From sequence record PZ540767.1: DNA of 64,000 nucleotides, one strand, 5' to 3'. How positions within the stretch are numbered: position 1 is the stretch's first letter; every line of letters starts with the position of its first letter. Origin of the DNA: a phage. The notes beneath the pieces are model-generated. The model saw only the letters and a program-made list of their open reading frames with translations. It searched no databases and had not been told where the DNA came from. Position numbers and translations under genes: made by a program. This document shows positions 5,292-53,625 of the stretch, piece after piece.

Positions 5292-6368
5292 ATGGCTATT
5301 AGACTGCAACAAATTGCTGCACCTAACTTTGCTGGTTCTAACCAATTACTGCTGGCAGCAAACCAGCAGATTGGTAATGCTCTCCAGGGGCTACAAGGCA
5401 CCCTGGGGCAGTATCGTGATGAAGTAGTACGCCGTAATACAGCTCAGGCTGTAGGACTGCTTACTGGGGCTACAGATGCTAATGATCTGGCCCAGCGTCA
5501 ACAGCAAGTAGCACAGTTGGTTCAGCAAGGGGATATTGACCCCACTCGTGTATCTGAAGTGGCAGCAACCATGCCAGATACTTTGTTAGGACGTCAGACT
5601 AATCAGCTAAAGCTGAACCAGATTCAGACTGCACAGCATGATGCACCATTAATGGGTGCTTATATGCAAGCTGTTATGTCTGGGGATCAGAATGCAGCTA
5701 AAGGTATTTTGTCGCAATTCCAGGGGGATGCTTCAGATGCTCTGAAGTTTGCCTCTGATTGGGATATCAAAAACCAGCAGTTGAATCTTCAACGGTCTGA
5801 ACTGGCACAGCGTCAAGCTCAGTTTGCTGCAACTCAGGCAGCAGCTAAGGCAAGAGCCGGGCAGAGTAATGCACTGCTTAAAGCCTTACCTGGTTTGCTT
5901 AACACAGGTAATGATATTCAGGGGAAGGCTGAAGCCAGGGATTTACAGGCTAATGCTCAGGATGCTCAACAACGTGTTGCTATGGATCCTATAAACAACC
6001 CTAAGCTTAATGTTGCTGGGTGGGCTGATGCTAACAGTGATGTTTGGTTTAGGGGCTGGGGAAGACAGGCAGACTCTGACAGAATTTTTAATGCTCTGAA
6101 GGATCAACCAGCTTTTAAAGCACTTAATCCTCAACAGCAGATAAATATCCTAGACGGTGCCCTTGCTAATGAAAACTCCCGCGAAGATAAGGGAAATGTT
6201 TCTACTGTAAATGCTGCTACTAAGTATCTGACTGATGCAACGAAGCGCTTAAATACCCTGAAGATTACTTCACGGCAAGCAGAGGATGCAAAAGATCAGC
6301 AATCTGTTATGCAAGAGCAAAGGGATCGTTTAAATAAGCTGCTTCTGCCCTTACTTTTCCAACAGTAA
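5292..6368 (+). CDS. Gln/Ala-rich coiled-coil protein (358 aa), virion module
   Basis: ORF; stop overlaps start of the giant ORF (ATGA-type coupling geometry). Confidence 0.6.
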   Translation: MAIRLQQIAAPNFAGSNQLLLAANQQIGNALQGLQGTLGQYRDEVVRRNTAQAVGLLTGATDANDLAQRQQQVAQLVQQGDIDPTRVSEVAATMPDTLLGRQTNQLKLNQIQTAQHDAPLMGAYMQAVMSGDQNAAKGILSQFQGDASDALKFASDWDIKNQQLNLQRSELAQRQAQFAATQAAAKARAGQSNALLKALPGLLNTGNDIQGKAEARDLQANAQDAQQRVAMDPINNPKLNVAGWADANSDVWFRGWGRQADSDRIFNALKDQPAFKALNPQQQINILDGALANENSREDKGNVSTVNAATKYLTDATKRLNTLKITSRQAEDAKDQQSVMQEQRDRLNKLLLPLLFQQ

Positions 6369-12300: not shown

Positions 12301-15300
12301 AATCAGCAAGATCGAAAGCCAGAACGTGCATGATGCTAACATCCTGTCTCCTGACAATGTGCTGAAAGGTGCTCGTATCCAGAACAAAGCTATGTTTGAT
12401 GCTGTGGTTTCTTATCATCCTCAACATCTGGCTGCTTCTGCACTGCTGACTGAAGTTCGTAGTCTGGCTGGTGCTAACCTGTCTACCAACGACAAGGTTG
12501 CAGCGAAGAAAGCTCTGGAAGCCATGAAGACTAAGATCCTGGGTAAAGACTTCAAGGGCAACATGAAAGCTGCTCTGAACACTATCCTTAACCAGGCATA
12601 TGATCGTGACATTAAGAAACTGGAGACTCTCTCTGAAGTCTATGCTGTTAACCAGTATGGTACTGAGGGGGGTGAATACCTGATCACTGATACTGATCGT
12701 AAGAAAATTGGTGATGAGATTGCACGTCTGAAACGTAGTCGTGCTGCTGGCTTACAACGTATCTCTGCTATGTTCTCTAAGGGTAATGCCCCAAAGGCTG
12801 AGGCCAACCAGTATCCTGATAAGATGAGACAATACCTGTATGAGGCTTCGGCCTCTACAGGCTCTGTGTCAGCTTCTGAGGTGATGGCTCGTACCAAAGG
12901 TAAGTTTGCTAACCCAGTATATAACGAACTCCACAATCTCATTTCTGGTTTGATTCCAGCTGATGCTGTGGTGAACGTACTGGATGGGCAGACTATGCCT
13001 AAGAATGTTAAGGGGCAGTCACTGCCCCAGAACCGTGATGCCATTGCATGGTCTTATCAAGATAAAAACACTGCACAGGTTAACCTGTCACTCAGCAAAG
13101 AGGCTTCACCTGAAGTCTTGCTGCATGAACTGACTCACATTGCTCTGGGACGTGCAATTGCTACTGCTGATTCAAATCCAAAAGTAAAAGCTGTACTGGC
13201 CCGTACAGAGAAGCTAATGGGTAGAGTGACCAAGCTGGTTTCAGCTGATCCTCAATTGACTCAGAAGTTTGCCCCTGCTTTGGCTAACGTGGATGAATTT
13301 ATCTCCTGGGGTATGACTAACCCAGAATTCCAACGTTACCTTGATACCATCACTGGTGTGCCTGAAATCTCAGGTCGTAACCGTGGATGGTTGGGTACTG
13401 CCTTTAAACAGTTTGTGGATCAAATGTCAGGCATCTTTGCTGCTGTAACTGGTCGAGCTATTAATGCTCGGGTTACTACTGCTCTGGAAGCTCTGACCTT
13501 CGATACTGCACATCTGGTTCAGGCTATTAATCCTACTGCTATTGAGAGTCCTGTATCTTCTATCAGCCACCCTATGAGCAACACTAACAGTGCTGCTGAT
13601 CAGGTAGCTAAGTTTAGCCATGTGGATATCTTTGATAACCTGGCTTCAACAGGTGGCAAGACTAACTCAGCACAGTTCACAGGTAACCTCCGTAATGTAA
13701 TATCCACTGTGGCGGATCAGCTTTACGGTGCTTTAGGCTCCAGAGTCACCCAGAATGCCAATGAGAATTATACTCCTGGTCAAGTCTGGAATGAGGCTGT
13801 AGCCACTGGGAAAGCCCCTGTCAGCACCGAAGCACTGAGCAATGGGTTTGTACTGACTAATCAGGAAGCCTTTGCTGTGGAGGCCATTGAGGCTGCTGTA
13901 TCTGAATCTCTGGCTTCTGGTTTCACTTCACCAGTTAACCGGGAGATTCGTCGTACTTGGCAAGCTGCTAAACAATCCCTGAAACCAGAAGACTTCCATA
14001 ATGGAAACTGGAATCAGGCAACTCAAGCAGAAAAACGAGCTGCTCAACAGAAATGGAATTATCTGTTTGATGTAACGAATGACTCTGGTGAGTCCCAGCA
14101 TCTGTCTCGTTTCGTTGCTATGGCTATTGGGCATGAAGACACCAGTAACTTACTTGGCTTCCAGATGGAAGATGGTAAGGACTCTGGTAATACTGCCTTT
14201 GAACAGGCTACTGCTTACTTTAACCAGGCTGTTAATACAGTCTCTGGCATGTTGACCAATACCCATCAAGGACAAGCTGCAAATGCTCGTGCTCAAGCAC
14301 TAGCTGAAAAGCTGATCCAGATTGAACTTAAGAACCGTGATACCACCATGAATATTCTTACTGGTGGGATCGACAAAGTAGAGAATGCCTTAGATACGGC
14401 TGCTGCTAAGTCTAAACAGTTCCTGGGTAAAATCGTTAAAGCTACTGGTATTGATCAGTCCTCCAACAATGCTCTGAATGCTATGGGCAAAGTTGCAGGA
14501 TTGGCTGCTCGTGATCAGCTGGGTAGCCTGAAAGAAACTATTAAAGAGTTCCGGGACTTTAATGCCCCTAGTACTCCAGAAGGTTCTCTGGCTTCCATTC
14601 TGACTGAAGCAACGAATGCTGATGATGTTCGTGCTCTGCATGAATCTCTGTTACGTTCTACTAAACGTATTGAACAGGATCGTGCAACCTTAGCTGCTGT
14701 TACTGCTAAGAACTTAAATGAGATGTTTGATAACAATGGTCAAGACCTGACTAAAGAAGATCGTACAGCAATGACTTACTCACTGCTTCGTACTGATCTT
14801 CAGTCTGTGTTGCACATTGAAGGTATGAACCTGAATAACTTACATAAACTGGTTTCTAATACTGGTTATCGTAAGCAGCAGATCAATAACCTTGAGAAAA
14901 CCATTAGCCAGTATGCTAACGGTAATGATAAGATCATTCGTGCCAAGGCTCTGGGATTCTGGATGGCTACTGGCAGAAATACCCTGGGACGTGATTTAGT
15001 TCTGAATGCAAAAGCTATTGCTACCGGAGCTGCTACTCACTATTCCACAGTAGGTATCGAACCGACTCTTGATGAAGTGAACGCCATTGATGCTCTGGCT
15101 TCAATGTACGCTCTAAGCTACACCAAGACCGAAAACCGTGTTCGCACTGCTGCTGTAATGGAACGTGAGCTTGCACGAGGTAAAGACAATGGCATTAAAA
15201 TGCTGATGGCTACTTATGCGAACCTGATTGAGGATTCTGCTAATACGCTGTTTGCTGGTAACCAGTTGTCTCGCATTAAAGGCTATTTGCCTGAAGATAC

Positions 15301-17050
15301 CAATCCTCATCATGACTTACGTGCGGTTGAGTCGGGGAGTGCAGATGAAGCAGCACTGGTGAACATGGGATACCAAAAAGTATCCCCACTGTCCCAGGAC
15401 TCTTTGTCAAAACACTCTGGACGTGTACTGTATGTGACCAAAGAGAATGGGTATCAACGAACCGTCTCTGGTACTTTCAGTTTAACTGGAAGCCAGCGTA
15501 AAGGTTCTTCCCTAAGTGGGGATCGTGCTGTTGCTGATCGTGTTCGAGCTGACGAGTTAGAACAGTTAAGGCAAGCGTCCTATGCAGACGTGCGAGGGCG
15601 TGAAGCACTGTCCCACACTGCCTTTGATCCTACTCAGATCCAGGATAACCATGTAGTGCCTGTATTAAGCACTGATGGTCATATCATGGACTTCCGTTAC
15701 ATGGCTACCCACAATACTCGTGACACGTTCCTTGATCGTAATAATGACTTTGCTGACCTTGTTGGTCGTCTGGCTGGTCAGAATATCGATAAGGGTGATG
15801 CCCCAAGCCAGAATGCTAAGATCCTGGAAGCTCTGCATGAAGACTCTAAGGCTAATATCCTGAAGAATCCTAATGCTTACTTTGAGATTGGGCCTAATGC
15901 ACCTACTGAGCGAGGACGTGAGATCTGGGCAATGATGCCTTATGAAGCACGTACTAAAGCTACTTCTCTGTGGGGTGCTGATCGTATGTATATTCGAAAC
16001 GATCTGGTTAACCTTACTTTTGGCTTCCGTAAGTATTCACTGGCTAACATTTTTGATGTTGATCCAGAACAGCGTAATATTGCTCAGGGTGTTGCTGCTG
16101 GTTTACTTGAAGCTGCTTTTGGTGATAAGGCTAAAGCTTATGTAATTAAGGGTGAGCGTGGCATTCAGGAATTTATGCAGTCCTATAAGGACGTGATCGT
16201 TATTCGTAACCTGAAAACCCAGTTCAGTAATATTATGTCTAATACTGCTCTACTGGCTGCTTATGGCGTTAACCCGGTACGTATGGTTAAAGATATCCGT
16301 ACTGCTCTGGTTGCTGGGATTGACTACCGTAAACAGTACTCGCTGCTACTCAAGTATCAGCAACAGCAACGTGCTGGTATTGGTAACTTTGCTCAGATGG
16401 AGTCCCTGATCAATGAGACGCAGGATCGCTTGAATGCTAACCCTCTGGCTAAGTTTATTCAGGCAGGTATGATGCCTACCATCGTAGAAGACGTTCAGCC
16501 TGATGCTGATGGTTACACTTATGGTTCTAAGATCCGTAAGAAATTTAATGAGGTATCTGCCCATCTGCCAGCTTCTGCTGTAACAGCTGCTCGCTGGGCT
16601 GTGATTGATAAAGGTACTGCACCTCATAAATTCTTAAGTGATGCTGCTCAGTTCAGTGACTTTGCTGCTAAGTATGCTCTGTATAAGCACCTGACAGAAC
16701 ATGCCCGAGATCGCCTGAGTCATACTGAGGCTTTACAACGTGCATCTGATGCTTTTGTTAACTATGACATTCCAGCTACAGCTACTCGCCAATATCTGGA
16801 TGATATGGGGATTACCATGTTTACGAAGTATCGTGTTCGTATCCAACGTGCAATGTTCTACTTGATGGATAAACGTCCAGCATCTGTTATGGCACATATG
16901 GCAATTACAGGGCAGTTTACTCATGCACCTGATGCTATGGAGCCACTGTTTGCACGTAACTTAGGTAACCCATTCACACCTTCAGTATTGCAGGGTGGGA
17001 GTTTGTTGAATGTCCCAATGCCTTGGAACTTATTCAGAATGGCATACTAA
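6368..17050 (+). CDS. Giant virion-associated RNA polymerase (vRNAP-like, 3560 aa)
   Basis: Single uninterrupted 10.7-kb ORF; size class matches N4 vRNAP (~3500 aa); sits at the end of the structural operon; followed by a strong terminator. Confidence 0.8.
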   Translation: MRLQSGYSTILRNTQMAGNSSPLDKFLVPQQVTGQEAAQALPAPTQPTIAQRVNDASTRILNNLTGQGMYPTEEGEIARLKRINNEQSAYAKEVAAKDSDYGWSSTNFLDPETSSLTDRTASTFVNYGKALTDAVNGLAGKTDKTFKTLGNVLDQASIPNDALDAYRRVQAGKGTEADNALLDRQGAWWTQPIEVNQYGVPEMGNQTLRQRLDAINERQKTQNQSSYDNLEKLANPVQMQQAAADIEKSIEGKSGLDKFAAGLAAIARNPGAAGQTMVESAPYMVGGIPGMLASSAMQGGSVLSQYLDTQRKASDGQIPTAKDVAIGTGLGVVDGALNFAESIINRTAMLPGSKVLPAGVADRLVNAAQRIAPRSSTAAAALARVTAPTLDLAKNALTEGLVSGAQNQIEENYAKGKNEWDTKGNDVAFFQGIAAATGFGAPRAALSTAGEVANTAAQAMQKRTEAQDPVGQAARNTTPEDLMNPQSEGYNPAAAIRRAGMEWTRNTDATTDEQKAEIQSQAQSAMDAAQNDHQNNLDMINQRATAERTLADAGKFIPAIQERLDQLSNDPNADPDAVNQLQTILAQQTEARDAAQQQLDAMPSQEELAQSATRSAEVLDQAKSEFGKFSSATGMNTNTAKPENPTASDIISHPMSYTNEDLQEFVRNAPANATPAELGTLRALADAKVAENAVKTGSKVNSEIFKSTSNNLSLGDYQQGINTAVQAGDTNRIQSLMTGINNFETSHTAKADIAQQYLNEAKQNGKSYQILKTSNGWELNTGKRLDAKAQAKNGGFTIHKGSTGLVNNIVNEAKAITATRQYMEGIATPSTNQNVTGSTEQVASPEAQPEGAATVAGETGAQEQQAQPTISPLTTRDIRAMDQATLEKVMATTQQAMSSDTNPVLARNLDALDREWTRRADVATNQNRGVDAPHRKLDDSFKPKAQENEIQRSQAETTTQTEHTQADIDNESTGSESQQTAPVNVDDVVTNTDTLTETQQDNVAHGALSIFGKVGESLKALREKALAEPKGLQNLVLTGFNQRVRPGFGSPLVAVKDFINTLKTAVDTGSFTEVNRFLKQHISESKAEGAKQKALLKQFVEFHDHITANLDNIIRTKAPEYRYQDFAQFILDENGNFDSNTKTGIAAGIFSWLGENGDKMFLNQSEVAKTLRIKEDQLTPQAMSRMADIGYRQDLIMSQLGQRIYQAMGFAKRADVDPNRASKLQNALGAYALHAMYSNGYMEQSLMTAKEYFDLQTMGLDEQSAKEAAQAFQNDFGVSPNDAKHKIVFSRPARNFDAEGKPVAIEAISDIKNGMKDTRSLMSKLFGYDPAVREVLTTKPAGFKQKVFGKMNREVPSVLAARISKAMQYDYTIDQGVVNAMRTMSTVDNAALQHIFGVRTDADVPNEMEIFKKGREAKNADIQRSMEMGLDFANRRGTNPFWMPMEVWTNQRIGDLASEFNPQGSKVHRAMGGLSAHQVEISVARNAPVLDADGKPTQYGLFLVSLAQGMEEAPVIGADGKKLKSVDKQTYATFLPAFQNYLRKPENIKAVRAMQKVIAGSATTADTNVIKNAVAEYGMNGQSFAALHNLAQYATALESGKSSVKLLAQMESDGVTNGPILTNILNGSADFDLLKRGGIYREGDNITNMPTYRELGGQDYYELLGDAMRQHWADYKTNAPASQQGQIQALEYFSTGYGARSKAKTLATPFNYSAGIPALKAAMGRATVEDVYSKIGSLIPLAKSNNKADFAKAYAEVSKNLSVLLGQKVNLPRTADGLVKFSLNPAQTKRIIDVDSQTRGVATETAVNEVAADFIASRDANTSLVNTTFTLANLRYNAAKAALLKKRIAEGKIPVDAKGAPLEGLTQADLDKLSRMIPNMPSATGVLSENTKASGYPMAKVEKAFTAKSPATSIDIYFKEAANPKPAMDANGMLLSQGLVGGYKSTQSTVTETKLTNPGVAMGANVTQGTDAAISSDVISKIESQNVHDANILSPDNVLKGARIQNKAMFDAVVSYHPQHLAASALLTEVRSLAGANLSTNDKVAAKKALEAMKTKILGKDFKGNMKAALNTILNQAYDRDIKKLETLSEVYAVNQYGTEGGEYLITDTDRKKIGDEIARLKRSRAAGLQRISAMFSKGNAPKAEANQYPDKMRQYLYEASASTGSVSASEVMARTKGKFANPVYNELHNLISGLIPADAVVNVLDGQTMPKNVKGQSLPQNRDAIAWSYQDKNTAQVNLSLSKEASPEVLLHELTHIALGRAIATADSNPKVKAVLARTEKLMGRVTKLVSADPQLTQKFAPALANVDEFISWGMTNPEFQRYLDTITGVPEISGRNRGWLGTAFKQFVDQMSGIFAAVTGRAINARVTTALEALTFDTAHLVQAINPTAIESPVSSISHPMSNTNSAADQVAKFSHVDIFDNLASTGGKTNSAQFTGNLRNVISTVADQLYGALGSRVTQNANENYTPGQVWNEAVATGKAPVSTEALSNGFVLTNQEAFAVEAIEAAVSESLASGFTSPVNREIRRTWQAAKQSLKPEDFHNGNWNQATQAEKRAAQQKWNYLFDVTNDSGESQHLSRFVAMAIGHEDTSNLLGFQMEDGKDSGNTAFEQATAYFNQAVNTVSGMLTNTHQGQAANARAQALAEKLIQIELKNRDTTMNILTGGIDKVENALDTAAAKSKQFLGKIVKATGIDQSSNNALNAMGKVAGLAARDQLGSLKETIKEFRDFNAPSTPEGSLASILTEATNADDVRALHESLLRSTKRIEQDRATLAAVTAKNLNEMFDNNGQDLTKEDRTAMTYSLLRTDLQSVLHIEGMNLNNLHKLVSNTGYRKQQINNLEKTISQYANGNDKIIRAKALGFWMATGRNTLGRDLVLNAKAIATGAATHYSTVGIEPTLDEVNAIDALASMYALSYTKTENRVRTAAVMERELARGKDNGIKMLMATYANLIEDSANTLFAGNQLSRIKGYLPEDTNPHHDLRAVESGSADEAALVNMGYQKVSPLSQDSLSKHSGRVLYVTKENGYQRTVSGTFSLTGSQRKGSSLSGDRAVADRVRADELEQLRQASYADVRGREALSHTAFDPTQIQDNHVVPVLSTDGHIMDFRYMATHNTRDTFLDRNNDFADLVGRLAGQNIDKGDAPSQNAKILEALHEDSKANILKNPNAYFEIGPNAPTERGREIWAMMPYEARTKATSLWGADRMYIRNDLVNLTFGFRKYSLANIFDVDPEQRNIAQGVAAGLLEAAFGDKAKAYVIKGERGIQEFMQSYKDVIVIRNLKTQFSNIMSNTALLAAYGVNPVRMVKDIRTALVAGIDYRKQYSLLLKYQQQQRAGIGNFAQMESLINETQDRLNANPLAKFIQAGMMPTIVEDVQPDADGYTYGSKIRKKFNEVSAHLPASAVTAARWAVIDKGTAPHKFLSDAAQFSDFAAKYALYKHLTEHARDRLSHTEALQRASDAFVNYDIPATATRQYLDDMGITMFTKYRVRIQRAMFYLMDKRPASVMAHMAITGQFTHAPDAMEPLFARNLGNPFTPSVLQGGSLLNVPMPWNLFRMAY

Positions 17051-44611: not shown

Positions 44612-44976
44612 TAGTCAGGCTCTTTAGGCAACTTGCTTGCCATAGCTTGCAGGGTGAATACAGCCATATCAGATGCCTGATCATCGCTGATTTCAGCTAA
44701 ATCAAAGTCCCAGGATTCATCCCACTCTTCAGCGATTCGTTGAACTTCACCTAGACCGGCATTCACCATGTCTTTGGTAGGCTCTATCCAGAGCTTTTCC
44801 AACTGTTCAATACGATCCAGCAAGACTGTGATCATTGCTGGTGAAGTGAGTTCACGCCATTGACTGATAGCTGTAACACGCTCATCCAGTTTCATGGTTT
44901 GAGTACTCAATGCCTGTTCAGCTACTGGAAGCAGCTTACGAAGGTCATGCATAACATCTTTGACTACTGGTTTCAT
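44611..44976 (-). CDS. Hypothetical acidic protein (121 aa)
   Basis: ORF with ATG; start/stop overlaps with neighbours. Confidence 0.45.
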   Translation of the reverse strand: MKPVVKDVMHDLRKLLPVAEQALSTQTMKLDERVTAISQWRELTSPAMITVLLDRIEQLEKLWIEPTKDMVNAGLGEVQRIAEEWDESWDFDLAEISDDQASDMAVFTLQAMASKLPKEPD

Positions 44977-45494
44977 ATGATTGATCCTTTGTTAACCCCA
45001 ATGCTTTCCATCGTTTTACGACGTTTAAACATTGAGATTGCTTTTGCATGTTCTTTACGGAATTCTACGATTTGCTCTGAAGATACCGAAGTGGGTTCAT
45101 CATGAGCTTTTAATCCTATTGACCTGATAGTTTCATGCATAGCTTCAGGCAGAAGGACAAAAAAGTCAGATAGACTGCCACTATTAGCTACGAGATCCCT
45201 CAGAAGGTATTCGTAGTAATTACCCTCAAGTTCTTCCATTTGACGTAACTGGTCATACCGTTCGTCAAAGGCTTCACATAATGAAGGGTGTAGTTGAACT
45301 ACAGGGGCATCCTCTATTACGTAAGTTGGGTGATGCTCCCCATTTCTGGTGAAATACTTAGAACCTGTTAAAGCTGTGTGTTTAGGCACTATCTCTTCGA
45401 ACACCCAAACTTTAAAGTCTGTTTTGGCTTTATCAAACATAGCCTGTTTGAAACACCGACAAAAAAGATCCATTTCAGTGGTCTTAATTATCAT
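44973..45494 (-). CDS. Hypothetical protein (173 aa)
   Basis: Track start is TTG; first ATG 45494 after ggggga RBS; stop overlaps next gene. Confidence 0.45.
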   Translation of the reverse strand: MIIKTTEMDLFCRCFKQAMFDKAKTDFKVWVFEEIVPKHTALTGSKYFTRNGEHHPTYVIEDAPVVQLHPSLCEAFDERYDQLRQMEELEGNYYEYLLRDLVANSGSLSDFFVLLPEAMHETIRSIGLKAHDEPTSVSSEQIVEFRKEHAKAISMFKRRKTMESIGVNKGSII

Positions 45495-46888
45495 GGTATA
45501 TCCCCCGTAAGTACTACCTGCAAACGAGCACGAGAAATAGCTACGTAGAGCAGGCGACGAAGCTGATCGATATCCCGGCAACGATTGAGGTCACCCAAGT
45601 CCACATAGACACGACGGAAGGTGGAACCTTGTGCTTTATGGATAGTGCATCCGAACACTGGACGTAGATCGATCCAGGTACTTTTAACCTTATCCAAGGC
45701 ATTTTTGATTGCGGTGAACTCTTCTGGGTTTTCTGCGAAAACCATTCCCTGAAGCTTCTTGGAGTAACGTCTTAACAGCTTATCTTTGGCCTTTTTATCA
45801 TTAGGCATAAAATAAGCTTGAACTTTCTCACCTGATTTAAAATCCTTTGAACCTTTACGGTTACGGTCGGTATAAACCCAGTGCCCTTCTTCCCCCAACT
45901 GTTTACCTCGTTCTAAACCAGTAAGGTAAACGAGACGGTCTGTGCCAATAGCAGGTAGGACATTCTTAATGCCCCCTACATAGCTGTTACAGATCGCATA
46001 GTCACCTTCTCTGAGCGTCTGAGAGCCAGTAACCTGAGAATAAATCTTATGGTTTACTTCGTTCACACGCTTGTTGGTAAAGGCCAGGAATTTGCTGGTG
46101 GAGTATTCCCATTCATCACGGGACATATCCCTGATCATCCCTGCTTCGAACTTACTACGTTCTACCCAGATGATGTTCTTACCGTCCACATTACATGGAG
46201 GAGTAGGGCCACCTTCAAGCACCCATTGACGAAGACGCTTAGATAACGCCTGTACAGGGTTATCGTCAGACTGTCTCATGATCTGGGTTAACTCGACCAT
46301 GGGGAAGCGTCCTTCTTCGAATACAGGCAAGTCACCTTCAGCAGTCTTACATTGGGCTTTGTCACCCATGAAGATTACTTTGGTGCCTTTACCCAGCTTC
46401 ATATAGATATGCTCTAACAAGGTCATATCGATGTAGCTGGCTTCATCAACAAAGACGAAGGTATTCCACAGCAATTCATCTGGTTTATGGGATACGAGAA
46501 CATCCTTATAAGTCTTAGGATCTTCTTCCATACCCAACCGAAGCAAGCTATGGATCGTCTTTGCAGTACAACCCATAGCATGTTCGAAGGCTTCAGCAGC
46601 CTTATTGGTGGTAGCTGTGAATTCGACGCGGGGATTACGCTGTACTTTAATCCCCAGTGCTTCCATCGTCTTTTGTACTTTTTCCAGATGTTCAAGCACA
46701 TACTTAATGACGGTGGTTTTCCCTGTACCAGCAGCACCAGATAAGACCATTACCTGATTACTGTTGAATATCATGGGATCTTCATCCCCCTTAAAGCGGG
46801 GGACATAGATATCATGAGGTTGATGTTTGTTAAGCAGAAAGTCCGTGATGAACTCACAGGCTTTCTGTTGACCTTGGGATAGCTGCAT
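45491..46888 (-). CDS. SF1 DNA helicase (Dda/RecD-like)
   Basis: Walker A 'GAAGTGKTT', 'VFVDEASY' Walker B, C-terminal 'TIHKAQGSTF' motif. Confidence 0.8.
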   Translation of the reverse strand: MQLSQGQQKACEFITDFLLNKHQPHDIYVPRFKGDEDPMIFNSNQVMVLSGAAGTGKTTVIKYVLEHLEKVQKTMEALGIKVQRNPRVEFTATTNKAAEAFEHAMGCTAKTIHSLLRLGMEEDPKTYKDVLVSHKPDELLWNTFVFVDEASYIDMTLLEHIYMKLGKGTKVIFMGDKAQCKTAEGDLPVFEEGRFPMVELTQIMRQSDDNPVQALSKRLRQWVLEGGPTPPCNVDGKNIIWVERSKFEAGMIRDMSRDEWEYSTSKFLAFTNKRVNEVNHKIYSQVTGSQTLREGDYAICNSYVGGIKNVLPAIGTDRLVYLTGLERGKQLGEEGHWVYTDRNRKGSKDFKSGEKVQAYFMPNDKKAKDKLLRRYSKKLQGMVFAENPEEFTAIKNALDKVKSTWIDLRPVFGCTIHKAQGSTFRRVYVDLGDLNRCRDIDQLRRLLYVAISRARLQVVLTGDIP

Positions 46889-46912: not shown

Positions 46913-48094
46913 CTATACAAGCCCTTCCATTGTAAAGTGAACCACTTTGCCAAATTTTGGTACAAAGTTGGGGTTATCATAAACGAACCAGATTACAGGA
47001 CGTTTAGGATCTACCAGATTGTGCTGGCTGAGGTAACCATCAGTCAGGATAAACATCCCCAGTGATGCTTTATCACGGGCGAAGTCTTCGATGGTACTGT
47101 CGATGCAAGTACCGCCACCACCACTGAATTTAACATTGAGCAGATCACGTACTGTACATATACGAGAGATATCCTTGATATCAGTATCAAACTGATACAG
47201 CTTTATCTCGTCTGGTTTAAACAGTTTCAGTACCTGATAAACACCACCTAAGAAGATGGTGAACTCTTTCTTGCCAATGGAACCAGATACGTCAATAGCC
47301 CATGAAATACGTCCCAGGGACTTACCACGGCGTTCTGGAGCAGTGATATCGTGTACCAGCATACGACGACGAAGACGTGACCATGTACGGCCAGGCTTAC
47401 GTGTGACCTTCTCACAGAAGATCTTCAGATAGTGCTGCCAAGGAATTGGAGGATTCAGGAGATCCTCAATACGGCGAGCCATATCCTTAGTACCACGCCC
47501 AAACTGTTTACCAGTCTGGTTTGCCTCAGCCATTTCAGCTGCCATGTTAGCACCCAGTAAGATGCTATCAATTTGCTGCTTCTGGCTATCCTGTTCTTCT
47601 TGGGTCAGGGACTGTTTATTGAAATCAGGCATAGGGTTTTTACCCTTGTGAGTGCCTGGTTTCTTAGCCTCTTCCTGTTGAAGAATCCGGTATACCTGCA
47701 TGGTGGTCATACCATCAAAGCGGGAGTCTACCAATACCTTAATAGTTGTAGGCATTGGCATTCCAGACTTTTTCAATTCCAGGTTGATTACATAGTCACC
47801 AGCCTGGTTCCACAGATCTTCATCCAGATCGGCAGGGAAAGTAGTGCAGTGTTCATGCACAATATGCCCAACTTCATGAGCCACCACAAAAGGGTGTTCA
47901 GCAGGTTTGAGCATCTCCATGAATTTCTGGTTGTAATACACGGTTAAAGAATCCGTGTAAGCAGAATCACAAGGGTGCCCAGCGGGCACTTCCTTATGTT
48001 TTAATCTGAGGATCATTGAAGCCCAGAACACATACTTCTCATCCAAAGCCAGGGTAGTAAAGGCTTTGTCGAGGATCTTCTCAAGTGGTGACAT
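46913..48094 (-). CDS. vWA-domain protein with N-terminal HExxH metallopeptidase-like domain
   Basis: 'HEVGHIVHEH' zinc-binding-like motif; 'IDVSGSIG' MIDAS motif. Confidence 0.6.
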   Translation of the reverse strand: MSPLEKILDKAFTTLALDEKYVFWASMILRLKHKEVPAGHPCDSAYTDSLTVYYNQKFMEMLKPAEHPFVVAHEVGHIVHEHCTTFPADLDEDLWNQAGDYVINLELKKSGMPMPTTIKVLVDSRFDGMTTMQVYRILQQEEAKKPGTHKGKNPMPDFNKQSLTQEEQDSQKQQIDSILLGANMAAEMAEANQTGKQFGRGTKDMARRIEDLLNPPIPWQHYLKIFCEKVTRKPGRTWSRLRRRMLVHDITAPERRGKSLGRISWAIDVSGSIGKKEFTIFLGGVYQVLKLFKPDEIKLYQFDTDIKDISRICTVRDLLNVKFSGGGGTCIDSTIEDFARDKASLGMFILTDGYLSQHNLVDPKRPVIWFVYDNPNFVPKFGKVVHFTMEGLV

Positions 48095-48103
48095 TGTAAT
48101 TCC

Positions 48104-49156
48104 TTAGAAAAGTTCGTCAGCGTGGCGAGTACACCAGTTGCTTACCTCAGCATTACTGCCGAGTTTAGGGTTACGTGCAATGATGCTGCGCATTGAGATT
48201 ACCTGGTAGGACGCTGGCATACGCTCAATGAAGGTCATTGCTTTAGCAATGTTATCTTCAGCTACACCACGAGCCAGTACACCAGTCAGCGCATACATCC
48301 AGGATGGTTCATTAGTAGGGATACGAGCACCTTCAGGATCTTTGAGGATCTGTTCCATAGTTACTACTTTAGAGAAGTAGGTAACGAAGGTACGGAAGCT
48401 ACGTCCAGTGGCTACACCTACAGTGCCGTCGATCATCGGTTCCCAGCCTTCAATAGATTCCAGCGGGGTGATGAGCTTGGACAGCATAGACCAGGTACGA
48501 GCACACGCATGGGTATACTCGTTGGCATCCGGGTTGAATTTGTTGAATGCATCTGGCTCGTAGTTGAGGAATGCCACAATACGAGGATCCAGAGTTGCAG
48601 TGAACAGTTTCAGCCAGTACTTCAGGTTTTCTTTGATGGTCAGGTTGACCACACGAGAACCCAGAGCAGTACCCAGAGAGGATGCAATTGCACCATCATC
48701 TTCACGGTTACCAGCAGCCATGATCCACATACGTTTGTGTACGTGTTTCTGGCCTACTTTCTTGTCCAGAATGAACTTGTAGCTTGCAGCTTTGGTGTCG
48801 TCAGCAGCAGAGGTCAGTTCGTCCAGCAGTACCAGGAAACCAGCGTACTGCTTGCCAGTTTTAGGGTTAACCGGGATAGGATCACCTTCCAGCGGGATTT
48901 CATCCAGAGGGATGTATTTACCCTTGGTTTTGTCATCGTTGAAGCCCAGTACGCCATTCATGTCTACTGGTTCCATACCAGCCAAACGCAGGTCGATCAG
49001 CAGCAGGTTGTAAGTATCAGCTACTTCCTGCGCAATAGAGGATTTACCGAAGCCAGGAGCACCATACAGCATTGGTACAAGACCCTGCTTCATGATGTGG
49101 GCTACGGTAGTAGCAGCTTTGGAAATGTCGAGCGGAGTTGTCAGAGTCGTTGCCAT
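48104..49156 (-). CDS. MoxR-like AAA+ ATPase
   Basis: Walker A 'GAPGFGKSS', Walker B 'LVLLDELT'; adjacent to vWA gene. Confidence 0.6.
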   Translation of the reverse strand: MATTLTTPLDISKAATTVAHIMKQGLVPMLYGAPGFGKSSIAQEVADTYNLLLIDLRLAGMEPVDMNGVLGFNDDKTKGKYIPLDEIPLEGDPIPVNPKTGKQYAGFLVLLDELTSAADDTKAASYKFILDKKVGQKHVHKRMWIMAAGNREDDGAIASSLGTALGSRVVNLTIKENLKYWLKLFTATLDPRIVAFLNYEPDAFNKFNPDANEYTHACARTWSMLSKLITPLESIEGWEPMIDGTVGVATGRSFRTFVTYFSKVVTMEQILKDPEGARIPTNEPSWMYALTGVLARGVAEDNIAKAMTFIERMPASYQVISMRSIIARNPKLGSNAEVSNWCTRHADELF

Positions 49157-49157
49157 G

Positions 49158-49397
49158 TTAGATAGTCTCTACTTTAGATGCGGTGAATTTAATACGGTCG
49201 CCTAAGCTACCGTCTTTATTGATCATATAACCAATACCCTTACCACCTTGGGCAAGGATCTTGTTTGATACAGCAGACATTACTTCAGCAGTAATGACTT
49301 GAGGATCCATGATAGGCACACCATCAAGGATCACTTGAACAGTAATTTCTGGGGTAGTGTCGGTAGTGACACCGATTGCTAATGCAACATCGAACAT
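49158..49397 (-). CDS. Hypothetical protein (79 aa)
   Basis: ORF with ATG, tightly packed upstream of MoxR-like gene. Confidence 0.45.
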   Translation of the reverse strand: MFDVALAIGVTTDTTPEITVQVILDGVPIMDPQVITAEVMSAVSNKILAQGGKGIGYMINKDGSLGDRIKFTASKVETI

Positions 49398-49406
49398 GTG
49401 AATTCC

Positions 49407-50090
49407 TTAGCAGGAGCAGGAGAAGAAGTTAGGTTTCTCAACATTAGTGAGATCACGATTAAGCAATACAGACATTGCTTCCCAAAATTCAGCAGAAGGT
49501 CGTTCACCTTCCATAGAGGAACCACCCACCAGGTAGTTATATCCGTTAGGATCCTCAATGGCTTCTAACCCCTGATCAAAAAGTTGTTCAGCAGTTATGT
49601 CACCCTCATAGTCTGAGAGTTCTTCAGCATAGTTTTCCATGAACTCCCATGCTTTACCTAACTCAGTACCGATAGCTACATGGGTTTTACGTTCAGCATC
49701 ATTGAGATCATCCCATGCTTTGGATACTGCTACTTCATGGCTGGTTTCACGAGAATCAGGAAAATCAGGATGTTCCCAGACGTGGCGAAGGGAAGTGATC
49801 ATACGTGGGGCCATGACGAACCAAAACGCTTCCCCTGGTAATGGGCCTTTAGGAAGGAATGGGTCAACAATACCGTGATACGGTACAATTTTACCATCCC
49901 ATTCAATACCAGTGGCATATGCATGACCGTCAATAATGCCAATACGCTGACCTGGGTATAGGCCAGCACTTGCTGCTATTACTGGCTCAACACCCAAGTG
50001 AATAGCATCACGTTTTTCATCGTGTTGATGGATCATGCCCAGAGTTTCCAGAGCATCAGTATGGGGAGTACGTTTGTCATTATGGGACAT
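49407..50090 (-). CDS. Hypothetical protein (227 aa)
   Basis: ORF with ATG; no recognised motif. Confidence 0.5.
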   Translation of the reverse strand: MSHNDKRTPHTDALETLGMIHQHDEKRDAIHLGVEPVIAASAGLYPGQRIGIIDGHAYATGIEWDGKIVPYHGIVDPFLPKGPLPGEAFWFVMAPRMITSLRHVWEHPDFPDSRETSHEVAVSKAWDDLNDAERKTHVAIGTELGKAWEFMENYAEELSDYEGDITAEQLFDQGLEAIEDPNGYNYLVGGSSMEGERPSAEFWEAMSVLLNRDLTNVEKPNFFSCSC

Positions 50091-50114: not shown

Positions 50115-50300
50115 TTACTTAATAGGTTTAAACGCATTAGCAGGTAATTTTTTAGCTCCTGCTACAGCATTCTGAATTGCTTTGATTCTCCCAAATAGGG
50201 TGTCAGGTTCACCTGGATAGGATCGGGCAAATTCAAAGCCAGAATGTTCAAGTTGCCCCTCTTTGGTAACAACCATGTATCCGAATTTAGTTACGATCAT
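50115..50300 (-). CDS. Small protein (61 aa)
   Basis: ATG preceded by strong ggagga RBS. Confidence 0.45.
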   Translation of the reverse strand: MIVTKFGYMVVTKEGQLEHSGFEFARSYPGEPDTLFGRIKAIQNAVAGAKKLPANAFKPIK

Positions 50301-50384: not shown

Positions 50385-51221
50385 TTACTTAACAGGGACG
50401 AAAGGTACAGAAGCACCTGGCACCATAGTGGTAGGCATTACACCGTTCCACTTAGCAATGGCATCCAGTTGAATTACGTTCGGGTTAGCAGCGAGTGCTT
50501 CACCACGCAATTTGATAGCATCAGCTTCACCTTGGGCACGGATACGTGCAGAGTCGGATTCACCACGAGCTTTCGCACGTTCTTTCTCCGCTTCAGCTTC
50601 AGATTGTTTGATCTCTTGTTCACGCTGCAATGTAACCTGGTTTGCAGTTACTTTGGCGTTAATGGAAGCAATGACGGTTGGTGGGTATTCAGGCTTGCCC
50701 ACATAGGACAGACTGATCACCTCAATACCAACTGGGGTCATTTCAGCCTGGATCATACTGAGTGCTTGGGTCAAGAGATCAGATTTACCACCATCAATGA
50801 ACTTGTCAGTAGTCATACGTGAGGCCAGACGGTTCAGGCTGTCAGCAATCTTCTGTTGCAGATCGCTGTCGGTGATTTCATCCACACCTTTACGATAGGT
50901 CTGGAAGACTGTCGCTACTTTAGTCGGGTTGACTTTATAAGCCACACCGATGTGATAGCCGATGGTTGTACCGTCAGACATTTGGAACGTAAAGATCCCG
51001 TCGTAGGTTTTCATCTGCTTGAAGGTCGGGAACGTGTACAGGTCTTCGTTCCAGCCGATCCAGTAACGGCCTACACCTTTCACTTGCTGTTCAACACCCT
51101 TCTCGTCACCGAGACGGTTAACGATAATACCCACGTTACCTGGTTCGACACGCTCATAGCAGCCTGTCAGCGAGGTCATTGCAACGACTGCCAGAATGCA
51201 GCCCATGATAAATTTACGCAT
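50385..51221 (-). CDS. SPFH/band-7 (stomatin/prohibitin-like) lipoprotein
   Basis: Start at internal ATG 51221: signal peptide with 'LTGC' lipobox; SPFH-like core and Ala/Glu-rich coiled coil (QREQEIKQSEAEAEKERAKA...). Confidence 0.6.
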   Translation of the reverse strand: MRKFIMGCILAVVAMTSLTGCYERVEPGNVGIIVNRLGDEKGVEQQVKGVGRYWIGWNEDLYTFPTFKQMKTYDGIFTFQMSDGTTIGYHIGVAYKVNPTKVATVFQTYRKGVDEITDSDLQQKIADSLNRLASRMTTDKFIDGGKSDLLTQALSMIQAEMTPVGIEVISLSYVGKPEYPPTVIASINAKVTANQVTLQREQEIKQSEAEAEKERAKARGESDSARIRAQGEADAIKLRGEALAANPNVIQLDAIAKWNGVMPTTMVPGASVPFVPVK

Positions 51222-51417
51222 GTTTGATCTTCTTTTTGATTTGACGATAAACGAAAGTGACCACCAGAGCAGGCCACACCAGAGCACCAGCAATGCCGAT
51301 GAACACGAGGATGGTATCTTTAGCTGATACCAATGAAGGCAATATGCCTCCATACAGGACACCTGACAGGAGTAAGATCACTACTCCATACAGGTAGAGT
51401 TTCAGATATTTATTCAT
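51214..51417 (-). CDS. Small two-TM membrane protein, partner of SPFH protein
   Basis: 67 aa, two hydrophobic helices, KKKIKHA tail; stop overlaps SPFH start. Confidence 0.45.
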   Translation of the reverse strand: MNKYLKLYLYGVVILLLSGVLYGGILPSLVSAKDTILVFIGIAGALVWPALVVTFVYRQIKKKIKHA

Positions 51418-52962: not shown

Positions 52963-53625
52963 TCAAAAAGTCCCCCACACTTTAGGGTTGATCAAATACT
53001 GTTCCCAGACCTTATCGAAATAGCAATTGTCTGGGGCATTTTTGAACATAGGAGCAATGTCGCTGTCTTTTAAGCCAGCAAGACCACACCCCACACGAGT
53101 GACCATGAAGTTCAGTTCACCATGTTCCCGTGCATAAGCCAGGAAGGTATCCACATACTCATGGATCACTTGACCACGTAGGGTGCGTAAGCCAGGAGAC
53201 TTAGTGGGCAGAGCGTAGCTATTGCCATAGTGACCATGACCTTTACCCAGTACAGCACCATAGAGCTGTAGGGCTGTTTTAGCAGCACCAGCACCGTGGA
53301 TACCTGCTTCATTGGACCCGAATACGAATACCATTGGTTTGCCTTCAAGGCAGCGTTGAATAGTCACTTCGACTGTCTCCATTGGAAGAGTTTCACGGTG
53401 AGGTTTACTTCGGTACACCTCAATACCATCTTCCCAGTGCATACCCCATTTACCTTGTCGCCATAGAGTTAATGCCTGTGAAGCATTCCGTTTAGCTAAT
53501 AACAGGCGAGGTGATCCTCTGAACCCTGGTTCATGCTTGGTATAAGAATTACTCTGGCTTATGGATCGGCATTCAGGAAGGTAGGCATGGGTTTCAGGAT
53601 CACGATTGATCCACCATGTCTTCAT
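52963..53625 (-). CDS. Hypothetical protein with Gly-rich motif (220 aa)
   Basis: 'VFVFGSNEAGIHGAGAAKTALQLYGAVLGKGHG' looks like a conserved nucleotide-binding-type loop; family not recognised. Confidence 0.5.
   Translation of the reverse strand: MKTWWINRDPETHAYLPECRSISQSNSYTKHEPGFRGSPRLLLAKRNASQALTLWRQGKWGMHWEDGIEVYRSKPHRETLPMETVEVTIQRCLEGKPMVFVFGSNEAGIHGAGAAKTALQLYGAVLGKGHGHYGNSYALPTKSPGLRTLRGQVIHEYVDTFLAYAREHGELNFMVTRVGCGLAGLKDSDIAPMFKNAPDNCYFDKVWEQYLINPKVWGTF

Follow-up and report, generated by a model that had tools for sequence, protein, structure and literature searches.

The 64,000-nucleotide stretch of record PZ540767.1 that was analyzed here, referred to as the window, belongs to a Klebsiella N4-like phage (Schitoviridae) and is 94–97% identical to published genomes. 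It includes the ORF of the giant virion RNA polymerase (3560 aa, 6368–17050) and two ORFs at the position where the near-identical phage Tribble_ER49 has its RNAPII subunit genes, and the late region lies only partly inside it. On the minus strand, a gene for a MoxR-class AAA+ ATPase is followed, 9 nt after its stop codon, by a gene for a protein with an N-terminal zincin-like metallopeptidase domain and a C-terminal vWA domain, and a Dda-like helicase gene starts 24 nt after the stop codon of the latter (Table 1). A search for terminators between the ATPase, peptidase, and helicase genes identified no convincing one. Genes for rIIA/rIIB and DNA polymerase lie further downstream, and a gene for an SPFH lipoprotein lies upstream. 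An earlier reading of the locus, based on the sequence only, had proposed a MoxR-like ATPase paired with a vWA protein inside a phage replication block. Both ORFs are present on the minus strand with exactly the boundaries that it gave, all four motifs that it quoted occur in the two proteins, and its description of the genomic context was broadly right.

The sequence-only reading had also pointed to two genes without assignment (49158–50090) and a small ORF upstream of the pair, which are present. These ORFs of 79, 227, and 61 aa had no matches in Pfam, NCBIfam, or PADLOC. The 79-aa ORF was rejected as a part of the module, having no family match and no similarity to N4 gp21 or gp23. The 227-aa ORF was likewise rejected because its family, phrog_11912, was found in no more than 66 phage records; many of these belong to phages that are not N4-like, including jumbo phages, and the ORF is often split in two.

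Table 1. Coordinates of the gene pair, its domains and motifs, and the ORFs upstream of it
Feature	Position in window	Strand	Basis or remark
MoxR-class AAA+ ATPase, N4 gp24 orthologue	48104..49156	(-)	350 aa; phrog_1297 'ATPase', E 1.4e-96
AAA+ alpha/beta core, aa 8–185	48602..49135	(-)	AF2 secondary structure
Walker A GAPGFGKSS, aa 32–40; K38 and S39 invariant	49037..49063	(-)	29-homologue alignment
Walker B LLDELT, aa 110–115; D112 and E113 invariant	48812..48829	(-)	29-homologue alignment
Sensor 1 MAAGN (N150 invariant) and putative arginine finger ALGSRV (R168 invariant)	48650..48721	(-)	29-sequence alignment
All-alpha C-terminal region, aa 186–350: lid, putative sensor 2 R220 (CARTW)	48107..48601	(-)	AF2
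vWA-zincin fusion protein, N4 gp25 orthologue	46913..48094	(-)	393 aa; phrog_1314, E 2e-93
N-terminal zincin-like metallopeptidase domain, aa 17–247	47354..48046	(-)	PF13203
Predicted zinc-binding/catalytic motif HEVGHIVHEH (HExxHxxxxH), aa 73–82	47849..47878	(-)	Prediction; homologue alignment
Second conserved peptidase motif WNQAGDYVIN (N96, A98, D100, N104)	47783..47812	(-)	Alignment
Compact vWA domain, aa 265–386	46937..47302	(-)	Complete MIDAS
IDVSGSIG, aa 267–274	47273–47296	(-)	MIDAS segment
Small upstream ORF	49158–49397		79 aa
Second upstream ORF	49407–50090		227 aa; phrog_11912
Further small ORF	50115–50300		61 aa

Orthology with N4 gp24 and gp25

The ATPase shares 34% identity with N4 gp24 over aa 18–341 (E 4e-70), and the 393-aa protein shares 26% identity with N4 gp25 over its full length (E 3e-31). 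N4 gp25 also carries the identical pair of Pfam domains, DUF2201_N and DUF2201. Full-length reciprocal similarity and conserved synteny identify the two genes as the orthologues, in this Klebsiella schitovirus, of N4 gp24 and gp25, a long-known core pair that the sequence-only reading had not named. In both phages, the pair has the same gene order and lies in the middle-gene region, between the SPFH lipoprotein gene and the genes for rIIA/rIIB, helicase, and DNA polymerase. The two loci differ in their low sequence identity, in the small upstream ORFs, and in the gene that follows the pair, which is the Dda-like helicase in the Klebsiella phage and a dCTP deaminase in N4. The genes gp24 and gp25 are two of the 14 N4-like core genes, among which they are entered as 'unknown', and their transcripts in N4 belong to the middle class (PMC4193335).

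Near-identical genes (94–99%) are present in the published Klebsiella phages FBKp27, P184, Tribble_ER49, and GADU21, and the GADU21 annotation of the pair reads 'putative metallopeptidase domain protein | putative ATPase'. The label 'HNH endonuclease' is widespread for a protein of this pair, including in the RefSeq record of N4, and is wrong.

Domains and conserved motifs of the two proteins

The AF2 model of the ATPase has a pLDDT of 90.8. The protein itself scores below the curated Pfam cut-offs of both AAA (19 bits against 21.2) and AAA_5 (17 bits against 22), and for this reason its MoxR-type assignment rests on profile, fold, and family-level evidence. Relatives above the AAA_5 threshold include the ATPases of a Desulfuromonas chromosome (locus L010, 40.7 bits), locus L011 (31.9 bits), and the jumbo phage PA5oct (24.0 bits), and several homologues have precomputed PF07728 matches. 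Judging from these scores, the family belongs to AAA_5, and the window member is too divergent for the Pfam model. Single-sequence searches of solved structures gave nothing useful for either protein, and profiles were required; with a profile of 29 ATPase homologues, the AAA_5 modules of midasin were the best match (E 4e-11). In a Foldseek search with the ATPase model, NorQ/NorQ-NorD and the 'MoxR AAA+' CbbQ2 shared the top E-values with MCM. The best superpositions were those on NorQ chains, with TM-scores of 0.59–0.68 when normalized to the target and 0.44–0.52 when normalized to the query (NorQ has about 250 aa), whereas the target-normalized TM-scores against MCM and Lon were 0.17–0.30 and those against dynein were also poor.

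The model further places strands between helix 2 and the Walker B strand (aa 69–72 and 79–82) and before sensor 1 (aa 137–139 and 143–149). Read from this predicted secondary structure, these strands may represent the helix-2 insert and the pre-sensor-1 hairpin typical of the MoxR/dynein/midasin group of AAA+ proteins. The roles of sensor 1 and the arginine finger are probable assignments, made from the general order of AAA+/MoxR motifs. From aa 178 onward the protein consists of helices only, R220 within this part is invariant among the 29 homologues, and roughly 90 extra residues of the C-terminal region have no counterpart in NorQ. The catalytic motif set is complete, which was confirmed for an AAA+ ATPase of the MoxR/AAA_5 class.

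The 393-aa protein was modeled with a pLDDT of 88 and a pTM of 0.63. Both of its Pfam domains score far above their curated cut-offs: the zincin domain DUF2201_N (PF13203) with E 2.5e-31 (109.8 bits against 23.2) and the VWA-like domain DUF2201 with E 5.1e-17. The N-terminal domain also has a weak match to Peptidase_M48 (20.7 bits against 20.3), and a profile of the peptidase matched the solved structure of the minigluzincin MJ1213 (E 2.6e-4) and, weakly, M48 and BepA. Among 207 homologues, the HExxH residues are kept almost throughout (H73 in 202, E74 in 201, and H77 in 205), as is H82 (200), whereas H80 is not conserved and is usually replaced by Y, L, or F. The alignment suggests H82 as the third metal ligand, with D100 as an alternative. 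Within the second motif, D100 is kept in 205 and N104 in 204 of the 207 sequences. The vWA domain dominated the matches in the fold search with the 393-aa model, and the N-terminal zincin fold was compared only in that mix. The protein has the Rossmann-like vWA fold, and structural matches of the model include NorD and the MIDAS domains of MDN1 and Rea1. With about 130 aa, the vWA domain is unusually short. Its MIDAS is formed by D268-x-S270-x-S272, T329 (GGGGT), and D352 (LTDGY), each of which is kept in 206–207 of the 207 homologues.

These results agree with the sequence-only reading in its three main points, namely a MoxR-like ATPase (midasin profile match; NorQ and CbbQ2 superpositions), a HExxH metallopeptidase-like domain (DUF2201_N and MJ1213 matches), and a MIDAS-containing vWA domain (DUF2201 match; five MIDAS residues). 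Conservation of the three histidines H73, H77, and H82 spared it from the objection that it had itself named, that these histidines might vary among homologues. Assignment by HMM succeeded for the peptidase; for the ATPase, it stayed below the Pfam cut-offs but was obtained with phrog_1297.

Inteins interrupt some of the homologues. In the ATPases of loci L003–L005, Walker A is interrupted directly before its GKS by an intein that contains an HNH_3 domain, and the peptidase homologue P0104 has an intein exactly between NQA and CDYVIN of the NxAxDYVIN motif. Such insertion sites may be counted as a sign of the importance of these motifs.

Distribution of the pair and comparison with known systems

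The two genes were found together in at least 20 loci of different lineages. The fetched loci span N4-like phages, Vequintavirinae, the jumbo phages PA5oct and G, a Rhizobium phage, prophages, and bacterial chromosomes, and the carriers comprise podoviruses, myoviruses, and jumbo phages. In all fetched two-gene loci, the ATPase gene precedes the vWA-peptidase gene on the same strand, except in FFH2, where the two are on opposite strands. A tblastn search with both window proteins recovered the jumbo phages PA5oct, Atu_ph07, SCTP-2, RCIP0023, and phage G, and a Pfam search verified the pair of PA5oct. At locus L011, the pair is situated between a primase-like gene and a gene for 5'-nucleotidase (NT5C), and in the Rhizobium phage two small genes separate it from the DNA polymerase I gene, which lies about 1.5 kb downstream. 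In Syntrophotalea (L020) and Desulfuromonas (L010), the two genes form a stand-alone module in a housekeeping region of the chromosome, where phage genes are absent from the surroundings, and the module therefore makes sense without virion genes. A third, DUF3150-like gene accompanies the pair in some phages and prophages; an HMM search of the window and of N4 did not find it.

The same combination of a MoxR ATPase and a vWA protein with an N-terminal metallopeptidase has been described in group 2.2 jumbo phages (Iyer, Anantharaman, Krishnan, Burroughs, and Aravind, 2021; PMC7824862). The domain architecture and pairing are identical to those of the Klebsiella pair. The jumbo-phage genes are often separated by other genes or homing endonucleases, whereas the Klebsiella genes are adjacent, and the role proposed for the jumbo-phage pair is in virion assembly, whereas the Klebsiella pair lies in a middle, replication-phase block. 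The annotation by the sequence-only reading is correct and the feature is already known; because both the architecture and its occurrence in phages are published, the finding in itself adds no new biology.

Among the cellular MoxR-vWA systems, the N-terminal domain of the vWA partner confers specificity, the VWA 'finger' of NorD enters the NorQ pore, and the MIDAS binds carboxylates of the target (PMC9976466; PMC13036017). The partner N-terminus is target-specific and non-catalytic in NorQ/NorD, CbbQ/CbbO, and RavA/ViaA, whereas that of the phage partner is a zincin peptidase. The phage pair also differs from NorQ/NorD-type pairs in its minimal vWA domain, the C-terminal helical extension of its ATPase, the lack of a metalloenzyme client gene nearby, and an identity of 12–15%. 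Midasin/Rea1 shares with the phage pair the logic of a MIDAS-held client pulled by an AAA_5 motor, but is a eukaryotic giant that has six fused AAA modules and the MIDAS in one polypeptide and lacks a peptidase. On the peptidase side, MJ1213 shares with the phage protein the segment leading into and including the HExxH helix. In contrast to M48 peptidases, minigluzincins, and SprT-like proteins, the phage peptidase has an apparent third ligand His five residues further on and the family-specific NxAxDYVIN motif; it is soluble and fused to a vWA domain, and its only firm family assignment is to DUF2201_N. FtsH and Lon are functional analogues only, in which an AAA+ motor is coupled to a peptidase (in FtsH, also a HExxH zincin). 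They belong to other AAA+ clades, and the phage system has its motor and peptidase on separate proteins, a vWA/MIDAS adaptor that would bridge them, and no membrane anchor.

The vWA-MoxR-VMAP ternary conflict systems (PMC7159879) were considered and rejected, as Pfam, NCBIfam, and PADLOC detected no VMAP component or effector domain in the small ORFs next to the pair, and the genes that follow are those for the helicase and the SPFH lipoprotein; metallopeptidase effectors are rare in those systems (Kaur et al., 2020; PMC7159879). In PADLOC, the ATPase matched IetA and DolB over the length of the P-loop only (about 30 residues, E 6e-4 to 6e-3), and the vWA-peptidase had no match. An anti-phage defense system was rejected because the PADLOC and NCBIfam matches were at the level of the P-loop only.

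Possible function of the gene pair

The pair may constitute a two-component module in which a MoxR-class ATPase acts with a partner whose active zincin is joined to a minimal vWA/MIDAS domain. In this module, the ATPase would form a hexameric ring on which the vWA domain of the partner would dock, as NorD does on NorQ; NorQ and NorD, which the models also have among their best structural matches, offer a possible precedent for such docking. A conserved Arg-rich hairpin at about aa 236–255 (W..RxRR...P), which directly precedes the first vWA strand, is a candidate for an element that would protrude into the pore. The Mg2+-loaded MIDAS would capture an acidic residue of a specific target protein, ATP hydrolysis would remodel the adaptor and/or the target, and the attached HExxH peptidase would cut the target, so that the pair would work in effect as a split, adaptor-targeted AAA+ protease. 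Its site of action would be the infected cytoplasm and its target a non-virion protein, either of the host or an early or middle protein of the phage, rather than the substrate of a classical late prohead protease. Such a target is the most likely one because the pair is apparently co-transcribed with middle genes, from which we also infer its timing in this phage. A search of the literature by family names, Schitoviridae MoxR, and N4 essential-gene or CRISPRi screens found no experiment on any member of the family. Overall, we lean modestly toward the module acting as outlined here.

The only published functional proposal is that of Iyer et al. (2021), who suggested that the pair takes part in assembling the virion and that its peptidase processes structural proteins; their analogy was Acidianus two-tailed virus, which requires MoxR/vWA proteins to develop its tails (PMC7824862). 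Applied to the Klebsiella phage, the pair would help structural, tail, or ejection proteins to fold or assemble, and the peptidase would trim them. Several observations are consistent with this role: in the PA5oct record, the ATPase EST35_0335 is marked 'ESI-MS/MS' in the same way as the proteins annotated there as structural; in N4-like roseophages and LIT1, the homologues of gp24/gp25 have a 'second structural module' close by (PMC4193335); and the head-decoration protein gp17 of N4 is encoded a few kb upstream of the pair. A position in the middle block may also be compatible with action on late proteins. However, the middle rather than late transcription of N4 gp24/gp25 argues against a role in assembly, as does their absence from the virion proteins listed for RPP1/RLP1 and N4 (PMC4193335), and the KP8 table has no structural-proteome value in the rows of either protein. 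Moreover, the same two-gene operon occurs in bacterial chromosomes free of surrounding phage genes, and the podoviruses, myoviruses, and jumbo phages that carry it have very different virions. We therefore consider an assembly role somewhat unlikely. In a more specific version of the split protease, the MIDAS would recognize a host protein such as a defense effector, a regulator, or a factor of the nucleoid or of replication; once extracted or unfolded by the ATPase, this protein would be destroyed by the peptidase at an early stage of infection. Such a function would fit the middle-gene position next to the rII-type genes and the SPFH lipoprotein, which deal with the host. The spread of the pair over unrelated virulent phage lineages would fit as well, and that bacterial proteins can be targets of the module is shown by its cellular homologues with their housekeeping surroundings. 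Yet the pair is a strictly conserved core in N4-like phages of very different hosts (PMC4193335 for the core set), anti-defense genes are usually variable and accessory, and PADLOC gave no match beyond the P-loop, which leaves host takeover or counter-defense an unlikely purpose.

The two remaining explanations change what the peptidase domain does. As a pure MoxR/vWA chaperone similar to NorQD, CbbQO, or CoxDE, the pair would remodel a metalloenzyme of the phage or the host, for instance one of nucleotide metabolism, so as to insert or release its cofactor, and the HExxH motif would merely bind a metal or the target. Its best structural relatives are indeed metal-insertion or activase chaperones, and nucleotide-metabolism genes are common neighbors (dCTP deaminase in N4 and KP8, NT5C in L011), but none of the metalloenzyme genes recurs as a constant neighbor from locus to locus, and the general base E74 is kept as strictly as the metal ligands, as expected of a hydrolase and not of a mere metal site. 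A function without proteolysis is accordingly very unlikely. Clearance of DNA-protein adducts by a SprT/Wss1-related zincin and an AAA+ motor, in the manner of Cdc48 with Wss1, is suggested by the Desulfuromonas pair (L010), which is immediately downstream of a gene for an SOS-response-associated peptidase (SRAP), by a precomputed SprT-like match (PF10263) in the homologue P0345, and by the helicase or polymerase genes adjoining the pair in several phages. The idea rests on one neighborhood: the SRAP gene is absent from Syntrophotalea L020 and all other examined loci, and adduct clearance was rejected as a general explanation for this reason. Pfam detected no DNA-binding domain in either protein, and we regard this function as extremely improbable.

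Returning to the split, adaptor-targeted protease, a more far-reaching form of it may be considered, in which gp24/gp25 would represent a distinct class of adaptor-guided AAA+ proteases. The pair would cleave a defined host or phage protein of the replication phase, as an obligatory middle-phase step in all Schitoviridae and many other virulent phages, and the DUF3150-like third protein would serve as a substrate or specificity factor in some phages and prophages. We put this forward as a speculation that is doubtful at present.

Few gene sets are universally conserved in N4-like phages, and this pair is among them; such phages are now isolated widely for use in phage therapy directed at Klebsiella, Pseudomonas, and E. 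coli. A profile of the vWA-peptidase matches 33,732 cluster representatives, and therefore an experimental answer would provide the annotation of a large family in one step and reveal whether a protease can be coupled to MoxR-vWA chaperones. If the reading as a protease class is true, two unexplained core genes of a model phage would gain a function, and more than 30,000 sequence clusters would gain a biochemical role.

Gene layout and relation to the N4 gp24/gp25 module

The ATPase and vWA-peptidase genes are the already known gp24/gp25 core module of N4-like phages, here carried by a near-identical relative of published phages. A dozen published Klebsiella N4-like podoviruses, pKP-BM327-1.2, Tribble_ER49, FBKp27, P184, and GADU21 among them, match the 4.4 kb surrounding the pair at 94–97% identity, and the region in these genomes is ordered as N4-type RNA polymerase II subunits, SPFH lipoprotein, ATPase, vWA protein, helicase, rIIA/rIIB, and DNA polymerase. 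The window also contains a 3560-aa ORF matching the N4-type virion RNA polymerase in size. On the minus strand, the order is a 227-aa ORF, a 79-aa ORF, the ATPase, the vWA-peptidase, a Dda-like helicase, small ORFs, and rIIA. The genes around the pair are tightly packed, with one base between the end of the 79-aa ORF and the ATPase start codon, 9 bases between the ATPase stop and the peptidase start, and 24 bases, including an AGGAG, between the peptidase stop and the next gene. A terminator search between these packed genes found none that was convincing.

The 350-aa ATPase is 34% identical to N4 gp24 (E 4e-70) and the 393-aa protein is 26% identical to gp25 (E 3e-31), both aligned over nearly the whole length, and gp25 has the identical two Pfam domains. 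In N4, gp24 is a “putative ATPase, AAA superfamily” and gp25 a “vWFA super-family” protein, with the function of both entered as unknown (PMC2784036). Both are counted among the 14 genes that form the core of N4-like phages, and N4 expresses them as middle transcripts (PMC4193335; PMC10783043), and the Klebsiella N4-like phage KP8 has an “ATPase” and a “Metallopeptidase” annotated at the corresponding position (PMC6950046). Moreover, Iyer et al. (2021) described a MoxR AAA+ ATPase–vWA chaperone–cochaperone pair in group 2.2 jumbo phages, in which the vWA cochaperone carries a fused N-terminal metallopeptidase domain (PMC7824862). The domain architecture of the pair is hence not new to phages. 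A literature search found no experimental work on members of the gp24/gp25 family.

Several neighboring genes and annotations deserve comment. The family phrog_1314, to which the vWA-zincin protein belongs, is labelled “HNH endonuclease”, and this label has been copied into many records, including RefSeq N4 gp25, KpS8 gp108, and Tribble_ER49. Pfam detects no HNH domain in the proteins so labelled, only DUF2201_N and DUF2201; homing endonucleases or inteins in or beside some members may be the source of the label. An SPFH gene and a 67-aa ORF lie directly upstream of the block holding the pair. The GTG start at 51362 listed for the SPFH ORF is probably too far upstream, because the gene is annotated as 837 nt in a related phage and a signal-like segment follows an internal Met. 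Similarly, a 202-aa ORF (44973-45581, minus strand; TTG start at 45581) shares 91 nt with the 3′ end of the helicase gene (45491-46888, minus strand), and its true start is probably an internal ATG, since Tribble_ER49 annotates a shorter gene of 519 nt. A 220-aa ORF (52963-53625, minus strand), whose counterpart in a related phage is a hypothetical protein, has a stretch rich in glycine (FGSNEAGIHGAGAAKTA...GNSYALPTK) resembling a Rossmann-type motif for nucleotide or ligand binding. The 227-aa ORF (49407-50090, minus strand) belongs to phrog_11912, has no Pfam or PDB relative, and is present in only 66 phage records, several jumbo phages (GAP32, XbC2, phiM12, and CcrColossus) among them. It is split in many N4-like phages, where phrog_17232 and phrog_17762 are its N- and C-terminal halves, and its distribution is independent of the ATPase–peptidase pair.

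Features of the module, its neighbors, and homologous loci fetched for comparison (L numbers)
Feature	Position	Strand	Remark
MoxR-class AAA+ ATPase ORF, 350 aa	48104-49156	-	ORF listing of window
GAPGFGKSS	aa 32-40 of 350-aa protein		
LLDELT	aa 110-115 of 350-aa protein		
vWA-peptidase ORF, 393 aa	46913-48094	-	ORF listing of window; concerned by HNH mislabel
DUF2201_N (“putative metallopeptidase domain”)	aa 17-247 of 393-aa protein		Pfam E 2.5e-31
HEVGHIVHEH	aa 73-82 of 393-aa protein		
DUF2201 (“VWA-like domain”)	aa 265-386 of 393-aa protein		Pfam E 5.1e-17
IDVSGSIG	aa 267-274 of 393-aa protein		
SPFH/Band 7 protein	50385-51362	-	Pfam E 1.7e-29; phrog_200 “lipoprotein”; position of N4 gp20 (“lipoprotein”)
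67-aa hydrophobic ORF	51214-51417	-	position of N4 gp19 (“membrane protein”)
vWA-zincin protein, N4	L002 6165-7307		concerned by HNH mislabel
vWA-zincin proteins	L015, L016, L017		concerned by HNH mislabel
Third gene of cassette	L007 522-1349		
Third gene of cassette	L008 2737-3621		
Third gene of cassette	L009 4017-4979		
Third gene of cassette	L013 4892-5764		
Third gene of cassette	L021 4114-4977		
Third gene of cassette	L022 4031-4888		
Third gene of cassette	L023 3695-4624		

Fold and conserved sites of the two proteins

A sequence-only reading had identified the pair as a MoxR-like ATPase and a vWA protein with an HExxH domain. Both minus-strand ORFs and all four motifs it quoted are present, and its observation and identification are well supported as correct. 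The 350-aa protein alone falls below the Pfam thresholds for both AAA and AAA_5, and a single-sequence search against solved structures found no relative. It is placed in phrog_1297 (“ATPase”) at E 1.4e-96. A profile of 29 homologues matches midasin AAA_5 modules at E 4e-11 and CbbQ weakly, and relatives from other loci exceed the AAA_5 threshold. The AF2 model (pLDDT 90.8, pTM 0.83) superposes best on NorQ, both free and complexed with the NorD VWA, and on CbbQ2, which its depositors call a MoxR AAA+ ATPase; target-normalized TM scores are 0.59–0.68 for those NorQ chains that superpose well and 0.46 for CbbQ2. MCM, Lon, midasin, and dynein come next, at similar E-values but with poor TM scores. 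The model predicts strands at the positions expected for the helix-2 insert and pre-sensor-1 hairpin of this AAA+ group, and about 90 additional helical residues beyond the lid. K38/S39, D112/E113, N150, R168, and R220 are invariant among the 29 homologues. Based on the profile, superposition, invariant motifs, and AAA_5-passing relatives, “MoxR-like” is warranted for both fold and family, the family being its own divergent branch.

For the 393-aa protein, the two DUF2201 domains are accompanied by a marginal Pfam match to Peptidase_M48 near the HExxH helix, and a profile of 36 homologues matches solved structures of integrin I domains (E 6e-6), the minigluzincin MJ1213 (E 2.6e-4), and M48/BepA peptidases. 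AF2 gives a confident model (pLDDT 88), whose pTM (0.63) fits two flexibly connected domains; matches to the vWA domain, not the N-terminal domain, dominated the fold search throughout. Among 207 homologues, the peptidase residues H73 (202), E74 (201), H77 (205), H82 (200), and D100 (205) are kept, so the HExxH histidines do not show the lack of conservation that would have spoken against the sequence-only reading, and the MIDAS residues D268, S270, S272, T329, and D352 are kept in 206–207. The middle histidine H80 is variable, and the peptidase motif is therefore HExxHxxxxH together with a family-specific NxAxDYVIN.

Distribution, gene order, and selfish elements

The tblastn matches to the vWA-peptidase come from 569 phage records and those to the ATPase from 816. 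N4-like phages of many hosts account for most; the others are Vequintavirinae, jumbo phages (PA5oct, Atu_ph07, SCTP-2, and G), Campylobacter phages, a cyanophage, and a Rhizobium phage. An exhaustive search with the vWA-peptidase profile yielded 33,732 cluster representatives at E ≤ 1e-3, of which 15,979 reach E ≤ 1e-30. The ATPase gene is upstream of the peptidase gene on the same strand in all fetched loci bearing both, except FFH2, where the two are on opposite strands. The pair by itself also occurs in ordinary chromosomal neighborhoods, flanked in Syntrophotalea carbinolica by a GntR-type regulator and hydrogenase/NADH-dehydrogenase genes, and in Desulfuromonas sp. CSMB_57 (L010) by transporter and Fe-S protein genes and an SRAP (SOS-response-associated peptidase) gene (3385-4065) immediately upstream of the operon. 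In a Thermovenabulum mobile element it is flanked by a primase-like gene and a 5′-nucleotidase, and in Rhizobium phage RHph_TM3_14A a DNA polymerase I gene lies ~1.5 kb downstream.

Seven (pro)phage loci that are not N4-like form a three-gene cassette, in which a conserved gene for a protein of ~285–310 aa, a weak relative of DUF3150, lies between the ATPase and vWA-peptidase genes. No PHROG family covers this protein and no solved structure is related to it, and HMM searches did not find its gene in the window, N4, or the chromosomal two-gene operons. A DUF3150-like gene also adjoins the ATPase gene of cyanophage Pra-JY27. The protein could be a substrate or specificity factor.

Both genes of the pair are repeatedly targeted by selfish elements. 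An intein with an HNH_3 domain splits the ATPase directly ahead of the Walker A GKS in three homologous loci (L003-L005, 3857-5944), and another, in a 701-aa peptidase homologue (P0104), falls precisely between the NQA and the CDYVIN of the peptidase’s second conserved motif. Free-standing homing endonuclease genes occur within or between the pair’s genes in phages Pollock, phiTE, and PA5oct. The inteins sit at the most conserved motifs of both genes. It is a general characteristic of inteins that they persist at the most constrained sites of important enzymes, and these insertions are signs that the catalytic sites of the pair matter.

Possible function of the pair

The nearest studied systems to gp24/gp25 are MoxR–vWA chaperone pairs. 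Cryo-EM and mutagenesis of NorQ/NorD revealed a hexameric ring whose central pore is entered by a VWA finger, and a MIDAS needed for engaging target carboxylates and dispensable for ATPase binding (PMC9976466; PMC13036017). By analogy, we infer that a ring of the phage ATPase would hold its partner’s vWA domain, that an acidic client residue would be captured by the MIDAS site, and that ATP hydrolysis would go on to remodel either adaptor or client. Because the N-terminal domain is zincin-like and its general-base Glu is intact, the expected outcome would be cleavage of the client by this domain, and the two proteins together would constitute a split, adaptor-guided AAA+ protease. A chaperone acting without proteolysis is unlikely, since E74 is strictly conserved. 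A role on DNA–protein adducts would rest on the one SRAP neighbor in Desulfuromonas, but this adjacency is not conserved, being absent from the S. carbinolica locus and all other loci examined.

A serious rival is the role in virion assembly with peptidolytic processing proposed for the jumbo-phage pair (PMC7824862). In the PA5oct record, the ATPase EST35_0335 (L018 984-2099) carries an “ESI-MS/MS” note like those of annotated structural proteins, which suggests its detection in the particle proteome, and structural genes are near the pair in some roseophages (PMC4193335). We nevertheless lean towards a cytoplasmic, non-virion target for the putative protease, because the module sits within a block of middle genes here and is transcribed with the middle class in N4, and because it is also present in cells and mobile elements that have no virion genes.
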